Source: a virus (taxonomy: Duplodnaviria > Caudoviricetes). From it: DNA of 55,344 nt. Of the stretch, positions 29,400 through 30,283 are shown piece after piece. The notes under the pieces are model-generated. The model searched no databases and was not told where the DNA came from. It was given only the letters and a program-made list of their open reading frames with translations. Both the position numbers and the translations under genes were made by a program. The DNA lies in IMG/VR virus record IMGVR_UViG_3300020042_009027, positions 1 to 55,344 of that record; one strand, given 5' to 3'. Within the stretch, counting starts at the first letter, position 1; every line of letters starts with the position of its first letter.

Positions 29400-29490
29400 G
29401 CACAACAACAAGGCACTGGCGCGGCGGGCGCTGGACTCCGAATAAACCAACAAGGCAGCTCCCGCCGTTGCCAGCATCCACTTGTTCTCC
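29400..29490 (-). other. attC: attC-like site 1 (91 bp, somewhat degenerate)
   Basis: GGAGAAC AAGTG GATGCTGGCAACGGCGGGAGCTG...CAGCGCCCGCCGCGCCAGTGC CTTGTT GTTGTGC. Confidence 0.75.
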
Positions 29491-29496
29491 ATTCTT

Positions 29497-29760
29497 ATGA
29501 ACCTCATCGACAAACGCGCAATCAAGATAGTCCAACTCCAAGAGGAGCTGGAAGAAGCTAGGAAGATCATCACTGACTTCGTGTGGCCCAACGACGGCAC
29601 GAAGGAATCACGCCAACGCTTTGAGCAAAAGGCGGCACGGTTCGCGGGATGCACAGTCCCGATATTCGACGGACAACCCGAGCGACCAAATTCTTTGGGG
29701 AACGCAATAGGTGAGGCACGAGCGGACAGCGCCACGTCGCCGAAGCCACCAACTCAGTAA
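29497..29760 (+). CDS. Cassette-borne hypothetical protein; stop codon lies in the loop of attC site 2
   Basis: MNLIDKRAIK...PPTQ; ATG 6 nt after attC site 1. Confidence 0.65.
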   Translation: MNLIDKRAIKIVQLQEELEEARKIITDFVWPNDGTKESRQRFEQKAARFAGCTVPIFDGQPERPNSLGNAIGEARADSATSPKPPTQ

Positions 29761-29821
29761 CTACCATGAAAACTACAAAATCAAAACGCCCTGCCCGTTG
29801 CTCTCCACCGACTTGTTCGGC
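29697..29821 (-). other. attC: attC-like site 2 (125 bp)
   Basis: GCCGAAC AAGTC GGTG[G]AG[A]GCA[A]CG...CGTGCCTCACC TATTGC GTTCCCC; three extrahelical bases on the R'' arm. Confidence 0.85.
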
Positions 29822-29975
29822 TGGCTTACTGTTCAAGGACGCTCAGATGATGCGGACGTTGCGCGTGCATGAAAAACTCACTGATACGTGGTGGTGTGAA
29901 GGGGTAGACGAGGAAGTTGGGCTGTGGGCCTACTCCGAACAATTCATCCTCAAACATTCTCTGCCGAACGCCTAG
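29766..29975 (+). CDS. Cassette-borne hypothetical protein; starts in the attC2 loop and stops in attC3
   Basis: MKTTKSKRPARCSPPTCSA N-terminus is encoded by the attC arm. Confidence 0.65.
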   Translation: MKTTKSKRPARCSPPTCSAGLLFKDAQMMRTLRVHEKLTDTWWCEGVDEEVGLWAYSEQFILKHSLPNA

Positions 29976-30085
29976 CTCTGGCATCGCTGCCGAGAGCGGA
30001 AGTCTCAACACCAACAAACATACGAAAATGAAAAACACACCGAAGAAAAAGCGGGCAGCGATTGCTCAGGAGCGACTTGTTCGGC
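29963..30085 (-). other. attC: attC-like site 3 (123 bp)
   Basis: GCCGAAC AAGTC GCTC[C]TG[A]GCA[A]TCGCTGCC...GGCAGCGATGCCAGAGC TAGGC GTTCGGC; C and A extrahelical bases as in canonical attC. Confidence 0.9.
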
Positions 30086-30222
30086 TGTCTTGTTGCTGGC
30101 TCTATGATGAGGGACGCAAGTGCAGCAAGGCCGCCACGACAACCAAGAAAGTCCACGCCGACAGCGAAGGAATCTATCGCGGGCAATGGTTCAAAGTCCC
30201 TGTCTGTGACCGCCATAAATAA
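30028..30222 (+). CDS. Cassette-borne Cys/His-rich small protein; starts in the attC3 loop
   Basis: MKNTPKKKRAAIAQERLVRLSCCW...C...VCDRH; possible Zn binding. Confidence 0.65.
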   Translation: MKNTPKKKRAAIAQERLVRLSCCWLYDEGRKCSKAATTTKKVHADSEGIYRGQWFKVPVCDRHK

Positions 30223-30228
30223 TTGTCT

Positions 30229-30283
30229 GCCGAACACCCCAGCACAGGAAGGCGAAGGACTTTCCTGATGCGAGCTGTTTAAA
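30229..30283 (-). other. attC: attC-like site 4 (55 bp, minimal)
   Basis: TTTAAAC AGCTC GCA[T]CAGGAA-loop-TTCCTGTGC TGGGGT GTTCGGC. Confidence 0.75.

Follow-up and report, generated by a model that had tools for sequence, protein, structure and literature searches.

Are the imperfect inverted repeats that lie between small genes of an uncultured phage integron attC sites, and do these genes move as cassettes in a phage that encodes no integrase? The question is raised by positions 29400 to 30283 of a single IMG/VR virus record of 55,344 bases with an estimated completeness of 92%; this whole stretch of DNA is called the window in this text. An earlier reading made from the letters and their open reading frames (ORFs), here called the sequence-only reading, had claimed four attC sites at this locus, signs of past cassette recombination and the lack of a tyrosine recombinase. 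Our analysis agrees in part: the region is probably a small integron-type cassette array without integrase (a cluster of attC sites lacking an integron integrase, CALIN) in an uncultured lytic freshwater phage, and a host integrase would act on it in trans. A CALIN is reportedly defined (Cury et al. 2016) by at least two close attC sites without a nearby integron integrase; in the window three sites lie within 686 bp, and TIGR02249 and PF00589 have no match in the whole record. The locus is thus not a complete integron, since an integrase is found neither in the window nor in a relative that is 100% complete.

The inverted repeats sit where they had been described: site A (29400-29490, 91 nt), site B (29697-29821, 125 nt), site C (29963-30085, 123 nt) and a fourth one, D (30229-30283), all read on the - strand. 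On this strand, A, B and C each consist of a box ending in AAC, a spacer (AAGTG, AAGTC and AAGTC), a stem with extra bases in the 5' arm, a variable loop and a box starting with GTT. Seen on the + strand, a 7-mer ending in AAC and a 7-mer starting with GTT enclose an imperfect stem whose 3' arm is 2-3 bases longer. For these three sites, the architecture and the spacers read exactly as had been claimed. Site C has three single-base bulges, all of them in one arm, and the loop of site A contains the motif GGACTCCG (+ strand) that is also present in sites of related phages and in a Verrucomicrobial attC. Judged by covariance models applied in both directions and by the geometry of boxes, spacers and bulges, A, B and C are integron-type attC sites. 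The claim of four sites therefore holds for three real attC-type hairpins; D is at best a marginal case, either a degenerate site or an array boundary. It consists of the box GCCGAAC (30229-30235) and a small hairpin: the left box fits the chain of boxes (7/7 with the right box of C), the right half, GTTTAAA, does not, and the phage-derived covariance model described below detects D at 14.2 bits (E 0.029 in 6.5 kb), provided that the filters are switched off. Lone boxes comparable to that of D close the cassettes in two related loci, L053 and L073, and the D box forms the end of the last cassette in the window. Next to it we observed a 16-nt repeat: the copies at 29315-29330 (in the 3' end of ORF 29008-29352) and at 30234-30249 (just after the D box) are 88% identical, and both encode ...TPAQ... 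near a stop codon.

Relatives were retrieved as 80 related loci from viral contigs with an alignment of three helicases; the anchor in the window is a SNF2/ResIII-type helicase gene outside the array (30949-32268, + strand; Pfam Helicase_C 1.1e-12, ResIII 4.5e-07), and the helicase of L004 and L023 is 56% identical to its product. When window positions 29300-30330 were compared with these loci by blastn, sites A and C were found in one contig only, L023; nucleotide search alone therefore misses the family. Site A is 91% identical to L023 5566-5671 and both flanks differ, and the arms of site C are identical to those of L023 6344-6466 with a different loop and different neighbours on both sides. 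A first exact-pattern scan of viral contigs also returned the L023 contig only. A simple hairpin scanner detected 34 hairpins of this type in 959,521 bases as compared to 3 in block-shuffled sequence, some of them being unrelated AT-rich hairpins; with relaxed thresholds it gave 28 matches versus 19-21 in a reversed-sequence control, and it was dropped for covariance models. The first of these, R1, was built from an alignment of 18 phage sites in - strand orientation (A2). Since A, B and C are among the 18 seeds, their R1 scores (64.7, 49.1 and 68.9 bits, respectively) are partly circular, and independent support for them comes from the cross-tests against real attC sites. A search of the 80 loci with R1 gave 28 sites at E<=1, all but one of which have E<2e-4; they are spread over 12 loci: L018, L022, L023 (with ten sites), L053, L054, L057, L058, L060, L067, L070, L073 and L082. 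All 28 sites as well as the three matches in the window lie on the strand opposite to the helicase, and a search of whole records placed sites only in the early-gene region, three in the window and one in the complete relative. The phage sites have a total length of 57-136 nt. Many of those in the relatives have an ATG in an A-rich loop, as B and C do (at 29766 and 30028); the loops of A and of L023 5321-5377 contain no start codon.

Other conserved structures were seen in the same set of loci. AT-rich hairpins of 75-76 nt (TAAAAAC...GTTTTT(T/A)), which the scanner had caught via their AAC/GTT ends, are conserved in relatives without attC arrays (L016, L017, L024, L033, L077 and L078, e.g. L016 2149-2223, and L064-L066, e.g. 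L064 1174-1249) and are probably terminators. An imperfect hairpin of 103 nt, CAACAAC...GTTAAT(C/G), is conserved in five relatives (L025 1060-1162, L029 74-176, L033 5319-5421, L077 3910-4012, L078 5319-5421) and is not matched by R1. In L082, the 7-mer GAATAAC is present in five tandem copies (4491-4525) upstream of the array.

The identification of the sites depends on two covariance models that were each confronted with the other kind of sequence. As reference, we used the attC sites of the class 1 integrons in the phage P1 record MH445380, an accession given in Qi et al. 2023 (PMC9892861); the sites were taken from the annotation and the scanner. R1, which contains no bacterial sequence, detected 4/7 of the attC sites in this record (40.4-28.2 bits, E 5e-7 to 4e-4), i. 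e. those of aadA2 (40.4 bits, E 5e-7), aadA1 (39.1 bits), psp (34.0 bits) and cmlA1 (28.2 bits, E 4e-4), and 4/10 of the sites on four plasmids (35.2-26.8 bits). All of these matches, 8/17 true class 1 attCs in total, cover the full length with exact ends and lie on the top strand of the cassette, and there was no further match below E 0.1 in about 152 kb. The second model, R2, was built from 11 class 1 attCs only (alignment A5, the shorter sites); its structure was written by hand from the aadA-type fold and fits estX, cmlA1 and aac(6')-IIc poorly. A MAFFT alignment of 15 real attCs (A4) had misaligned L' arms and was not used. In 183,084 bases (the window and ten array loci) R2 gave six matches at E<=10. 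Each of them is a phage site that is matched on the - strand up to its exact ends: L023 5321-5377 (34.4 bits, E 2.4e-6), L023 7187-7275 (25.4 bits, E 6e-4), site C of the window (E 0.1) and others at E 0.22, 0.37 and 1.7. With filters off on 6.5 kb, C reached E 0.0036 and B E 1.2, and A was not matched. In the best R2 alignment, the two bulges of the class 1 consensus (guU[C]aAGccG[A]CG) coincide in position with those of L023 5321-5377 (GGU[C]GAGGCA[A]CG), and these are also the positions of the C/A bulges of the aadA type. We therefore conclude that the phage - strand corresponds to the attC top strand, as the sequence-only reading had it, and the coding + strand to the recombining bottom strand.

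The geometry of the phage sites and of class 1 attCs (the 60-nt aadA type and others) agrees in several respects: 7-bp boxes, spacers of 5/6 nt, a first bulge after 3 bp, a second one after 5-6 more, and a variable loop. In the scanner matches the spacers, in top-strand order, are (5,5), (5,6), (4,5) and (6,6) in the phages and (5,6) in class 1, every match has an excess of 2-3 nt in the 5' arm of the - strand, and the bulge columns are conserved. The phage sites differ from class 1 in their much longer and often coding loops and in the bases following GTT, mostly C or A, then G/T and C/G, unlike the class 1 consensus GTTRRRY. Pairing is maintained across the family. RNAalifold predicts 11 stem pairs for A2, with compensatory changes in all of them. 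In the alignment fitted to R1, which favours pairing since the sequences were aligned to the model, 86.6% of the cells are paired as compared to 62.7% in shuffles (0/500) and 33-39% with slid partners. The two helices of the L stem are about 95% paired, with two-sided changes in 11/11 pairs, and the pairing of AAC with GTT, seen also in A, B and C, provides two A-T pairs in 24/24 distinct sites and the C-G pair in 23/24. Folding energy on its own is weak evidence. When the two strands were folded, site A stood out (z -3.1, the same on both), C was not significant (-1.6 and -1.3) and the hairpin of B was not recovered, its minimum-energy fold being another structure (z +1.0 and +1.2); D reached -2.7 on the - strand only.

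Do the boxes bear traces of recombination? In 12/15 neighbouring pairs the box that ends one site is the exact reverse complement of the box that starts the next one, at 4/4 variable bases, and the two boxes of one and the same site are complementary at 4/4 in only 3/19 cases. Permutation of the boxes gave a mean of 2.0 and a maximum of 9 such pairs, and 0/100,000 permutations reached 12. The complementarity ends after 7-8 bases. The same neighbouring-box rule, the inverse-core/core relation across each cassette, applies to class 1 arrays. In the window, the right box of A (GTTCTCC, + strand) matches the left box of B (GGGGAAC) at 6/7, and both B to C and C to D match at 7/7; within the sites, the boxes match at 5/7 in A, 5/7 in B and 7/7 in C. 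The values that had been reported for A-B, B-C and the boxes of two single sites (5/7 each) were recomputed and are correct, and the claimed signs of past cassette recombination are borne out by the family-wide counts and the permutations. The data support the idea that the box rule is a boundary signature of cassette recombination.

A comparison of close relatives points in the same direction. L053, L054 and L073 have flanks that are 85-96% identical and share the end of an upstream gene up to GCTGAAC, immediately after which they diverge. Between L053 and L054, identity resumes exactly at the AAC of a common site (GGCT|AAC versus GGAG|AAC). Their common unit consists of this site and an ORF for a Cys-rich protein of 97 aa; its last seven bases, GATGAAC, are reverse-complementary to its own GTTCATC, and the backbone follows (AGCCAAA...). 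L073 has a different site and ORF at the same place, ending with GCCGAAC before the same backbone. The ends of the exchanged segments thus fall at the AAC box, which is what had been suggested to look for in related phages. Integron integrases cut the top strand at G/TT, and the breakpoints at the left-hand AAC boxes are therefore located where an integrase would cut the bottom strand. A crossover at AA|C of the left box implies that a cassette would be composed of an attC site and the small gene to its right. At the level of nucleotide sequence, these alignments show segment replacement at AAC between close relatives; the enzyme, the exact crossover base and the host are inferences.

These observations suggest the following scheme. 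In its single-stranded form, a site would fold into a hairpin with an R box of 7 bp (xxxxAAC / GTTxxxx). Spacers of about 5 and 5-6 nt, which stay unpaired, would lie between this box and the L stem; one arm of the L stem has 2-3 additional bases, and the loop is variable. The coding + strand would be the recombining bottom strand, with the crossover at AA|C of the left-hand box, and the integron integrase of the infected host may excise, insert and exchange the cassettes in trans, rarely and over evolutionary time.

It is conceivable that the array is a relic, i. e. that an ancestor of these phages took up a piece of a bacterial array once, that site-specific recombination no longer takes place, and that the differences between relatives arise by homologous recombination at the conserved arms. 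The sites are indeed found in only 12/80 related loci, with a single one in the complete relative, D and some of the boundaries are degenerate, and identical arms beside different genes would provide a foothold for homologous recombination. We regard this history as improbable: compensatory changes keep the stems paired, the boxes are perfectly complementary around 12/15 bodies despite four variable bases that differ between the bodies, and the breakpoints fall at the three bases AAC rather than being spread over arms of 20-30 nt. Moreover, the genes lie on the strand opposite to that of bacterial cassettes, which argues against a simple captured piece.

If the array is a set of cassettes, which genes does it contain? 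With boundaries drawn from a crossover at AA|C as inferred from the breakpoints in L053, L054 and L073, the window would harbor three very small cassettes on the + strand. Cassette 1 (29406-29702, 297 bp) would extend from the C of AAC in A to the AA of the B box and contain site A and ORF 29497-29760 (87 aa). Cassette 2 (29703-29968, 266 bp) would comprise site B and ORF 29766-29975 (69 aa), which starts in the loop of B, and cassette 3 (29969-30234, 266 bp) site C and ORF 30028-30222, whose start lies in the loop of C and whose product is Cys-rich (64 aa). Thus, 2/3 of the cassette genes in the window begin inside an attC loop, and the ORFs are encoded on the + (bottom) strand rather than, as usual for cassettes, on the top strand upstream of their own attC. 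None of the three ORFs matches a Pfam or PHROG family. When 18 ORFs, in cassettes or flanking them, were searched by tblastn in the window, in the 80 phage loci and in 120 bacterial loci, the window cassette ORFs had no relative; cassette ORFs matched each other only in the L053/L054 pair and, at 29%, in L023 7203-7532 and L082 5603-5935. The 29% match was rejected as a conserved cassette since, by eye, it is due to the N-terminus encoded by the common attC. Among the cassettes of L004, one has a gene for a Dam methyltransferase (Pfam 1.9e-28); this gene lies on the + strand and closely follows a site, which identifies + as the coding strand. The Pfam match starts at residue 35, directly past the portion that the loop and arm of the attC encode. 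B and C use different reading frames for the conserved right arm GACTTGTTCGGC, and we therefore conclude that this arm is conserved as nucleic acid and not as protein.

The position of the gene starts raises the possibility that the hairpins act mainly in the mRNA, where the stems would bracket the ribosome-binding site and the start of the next small gene and set its translation, coupling or early-transcript processing, the likeness to attC being ancestral or convergent. The folding strand is the sense strand, all sites are oriented as transcription, B, C and many sites of the relatives have the ATG in their A-rich loop, stem covariation is equally expected from selection on RNA, and the left box is often translated in one and the same frame by the upstream ORFs (...LPN...). 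Nevertheless, a function confined to the mRNA seems quite unlikely to us: it leaves both the complementarity of boxes across 108-450 nt and the AAC breakpoints between relatives unexplained, the frame of the right arm differs between B and C, loops without a start codon exist (A, L023 5321-5377), Rfam has no match at gathering thresholds in the window and L004, and the models cross-match true DNA recombination sites.

Which enzyme might act on the sites? At E<=1, PF00589, PF00239, PF01797 and TIGR02249 are all without a match, be it in the window (92% complete), in the relative that has terminal repeats and is 100% complete, or in additional partial relatives. By these profile searches, neither the window nor the complete relative encodes a tyrosine recombinase, a serine recombinase or a HUH enzyme; for tyrosine recombinases this confirms, with 0 matches of PF00589 in the 55,344 bases, what had been read from the ORFs. 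Since the phages thus encode no recombinase of a known kind, the simplest reading is that a host integrase would act in trans. Integron integrases use extrahelical bases for strand choice. That another enzyme cuts and joins the sites, be it an unrecognised phage recombinase, a structure-specific nuclease or a host enzyme other than IntI (of the Xer or HUH type), is the least probable of the explanations considered here: most phage ORFs belong to no known family, a putative RuvC-like ORF, read from its translation only, precedes the array of L004, and the junctions between the window and L023 lie at both left and right boxes, but no tyrosine, serine or Y1-HUH domain is present in the window or the complete relative, the geometry agrees with that of attC column by column, down to where the extra bases lie, and the same kind of site adjoins integron integrases in bacteria.

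For such bacterial sites, one genome per species was scanned with the pattern GCCGAACGCN{50,80}CTTGTTCGGC, which gave at least 120 stretches, about the number expected by chance, and R1 was run on 80 of them. Most had a weak match or none, and several arrays were found at E<0.01: six sites in L095 (Verrucomicrobia), seven in L107 (Pyrinomonadaceae), five in L106 (Planctomycetota), and others in L093, L115 and L133. The arrays of L095, L106 and the Acidobacteriota locus L107 score 25-45 bits with R1, as loci pre-selected by the phage pattern, and share with the phage sites the boxes GCCGAAC/GTTCGGC and the flanking AACG and CTTGTT. In L107, about 6 kb separate the array from an integron integrase (TIGR02249 492.8 bits, with a cut-off of 265), the two being arranged divergently as is canonical, and the array of L106 starts beside integrase fragments, also on the canonical divergent strand. 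In L095, the ORFs are on the attC top strand, as is canonical, and thus unlike those of the phages. The Verrucomicrobial site L095 2507-2593 and L023 5321-5377 agree at 31/35 positions of the arms, not counting the boxes, and the loop of the former contains the motif CGGAGTC of window site A; in an ungapped comparison L095 provides the best arm match for 15/25 phage sites, though it contributes only 6/37 of the compared sites. A blastn-short search with the phage sites against the bacterial loci gave one chance-level match. Since the loci were chosen by a phage-derived pattern, the Verrucomicrobial likeness is a host lead and not evidence: a host in the PVC group, e. g. among the Verrucomicrobia, would be a lead only. 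As an additional observation, L107 (Pyrinomonadaceae 2,401,141-2,404,403) together with L213, and L178 together with L214 (Zavarzinella formosa scaffold 13), are complete chromosomal integrons in Acidobacteriota and Planctomycetota, respectively. On the Zavarzinella scaffold, the integrase is located at about 148 kb and the pattern match at 208-216 kb, which suggests that this array is very long.

Several results weigh against a cassette array that is served by a host integrase. In two of the replaced segments, L053 1503-1813 and L054 6180-6320, AAC stands at both ends with no hairpin in between, and a search for an empty insertion site among the relatives found none. L067 was considered as such a site, as its upstream gene ends with GCTGAAC and is followed by the next backbone gene; it was rejected, the sequence after AAC being unlike that of L053 or L073. 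Genes on the bottom strand, some of which start in the attC loop, are an atypical layout for cassettes, and the identical hairpins also exist in the mRNA and may be RNA elements. The same arms stand beside unrelated genes on both sides in window site C and L023 6344-6466, and the link of one attC to one gene is therefore shown only for the L053/L054 pair. With respect to the models, R1 misses 9/17 true class 1 attCs, so that the likeness covers part of the attC spectrum, and R2, which penalises long loops, is weak on the sites of the window itself (C 17.1 bits, B 7.8 bits, A none). The count of G-T wobble pairs favours neither strand (7 versus 7). Finally, the pattern that retrieved the bacterial arrays had been taken over from the phage sites, and the likeness of these arrays is partly due to this selection.

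The cassette array can be extended to a broader and considerably more tentative picture, which we think possible but would not bet on: lytic freshwater phages may keep a pool of mini "inverted" cassettes in which a small early gene has an attC joined to its 5' end, so that one hairpin would serve both as DNA recombination site and as the translation-start region of the mRNA, and these cassettes may be traded via a host integrase, possibly that of Verrucomicrobia or other members of the PVC group. If this holds true, the integron machinery would be a shared exchange platform for accessory genes of phages and not of bacteria only.

How do these arrays relate to known systems? Repeated hairpins between small early genes of lytic phages, for which modular exchange has been proposed, are known from the PeSL of T4-type phages; these elements are said to shuffle small genes as promoter-plus-hairpin units that are thought to recombine by homology (Arbiol et al. 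2010). They have neither the AAC/GTT boxes nor the bulge pattern or the complementary box rule of the sites described here. The suspicion that attC sites on phages were an undescribed system was wrong: as stated in Qi et al. 2023 (PMC9892861), 10,705 phage genomes contained 3 complete integrons, one In0 and 17 CALINs, IntI1 recombined 5/6 attC sites from virulent phages, methyltransferases were among the cassette cargo, and a host integrase was proposed to act. The CALINs of virulent phages in that source (Tetrasphaera phage TJE1, Pseudoalteromonas phage PH101 as well as Polaribacter phage P12002L) resemble the present arrays in having attC sites without an integrase and a methyltransferase as cargo. 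A phage-borne CALIN is of a kind already described (Qi et al. 2023, PMC9892861). In the arrays described there, the ORFs typically have the usual cassette direction, and here all are on the bottom strand and some start in the loop; compared with those CALINs, the cassettes considered here, known from sequence alone, are very small (266-297 bp), recurrent across an uncultured phage group and marked by breakpoints at the boxes. The full-text literature, in a search that extended neither to subscription journals nor to the supplements of Qi et al., yielded no attC arrays in uncultured freshwater phages, genes starting in attC loops or box-level breakpoints between phage relatives. New here are the genes on the bottom strand, the loop starts in 2/3 of the window cassettes, the recurrence in 12/80 related contigs and the signs of exchange at the population level.

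Integrons have been regarded as devices of bacteria, and clusters of attC sites in phages have so far been rare, isolated reports; here they recur in a group of uncultured lytic phages. They offer a natural setting in which to ask whether phage genomes are remodelled by host integrases in the course of infection, and attC families common to phages and bacteria are a possible handle on the hosts of uncultured phages. The origin of cassettes is an open question in integron biology, and it is tempting to speculate that phages in which an attC is built into the start of a gene have a bearing on it.

The window belongs to a lytic freshwater phage that is uncultured. Its genes include those for a DNA polymerase of family A, a DUF5906 domain, which we take to be a primase-helicase, the SNF2/ResIII helicase, and a DUF2800/PD-(D/E)XK nuclease. 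Compared with the polymerases of the GenBank phage collection, that of the window reaches an identity of no more than about 26%, which indicates an uncultured lineage. Every gene between 26132 and 38527 is on the + strand, and ARAGORN found no tRNA. Parts of the stretch are present in assembled contigs of 23/24 public runs from 20 studies, none with at least half of its words, and the source labels read freshwater or lake water in all but two. In four freshwater runs, the summed contig depth is high over site A (69-228), site B (7-351) and the D region (30231-30273; 84-261), where the contigs diverge on either side, and low over the gene bodies (0-21 and 0-38). Joints in the contigs bracket the bodies at 29486->29700 (2 runs) and 29823->29960 (1 run), and a joint in the loop of C runs from 29983/29987 to 30058/30062 (4 runs). 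All of these joints have sides shorter than 30 letters at 90% likeness that are often foreign, and uncovered parts prove nothing; joints across the bodies and the C loop are no more than compatible with cassettes.

A family of small proteins with the N-terminus M(T/S)PE(Q/A)QRIAIAEACGW recurs just upstream or downstream of the arrays in many relatives, sometimes in tandem. Copies are found in the window (28364-28672, without a Pfam match), in L004 (2206-2529 and 2517-2873) and in L053 (from about 2270 onward). Downstream of the D region, 30329-30952 encodes a protein of 207 aa that matches phrog_3704 (4e-50), labelled ferredoxin; its DNA is 64-66% identical to Synechococcus phage genes annotated as PurM or hypothetical, and these annotations conflict. 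Finally, a single ORF on the - strand (8336-21883) encodes 4,515 aa, which is very large for a phage of 55 kb, and its product is probably a virion or injected protein.

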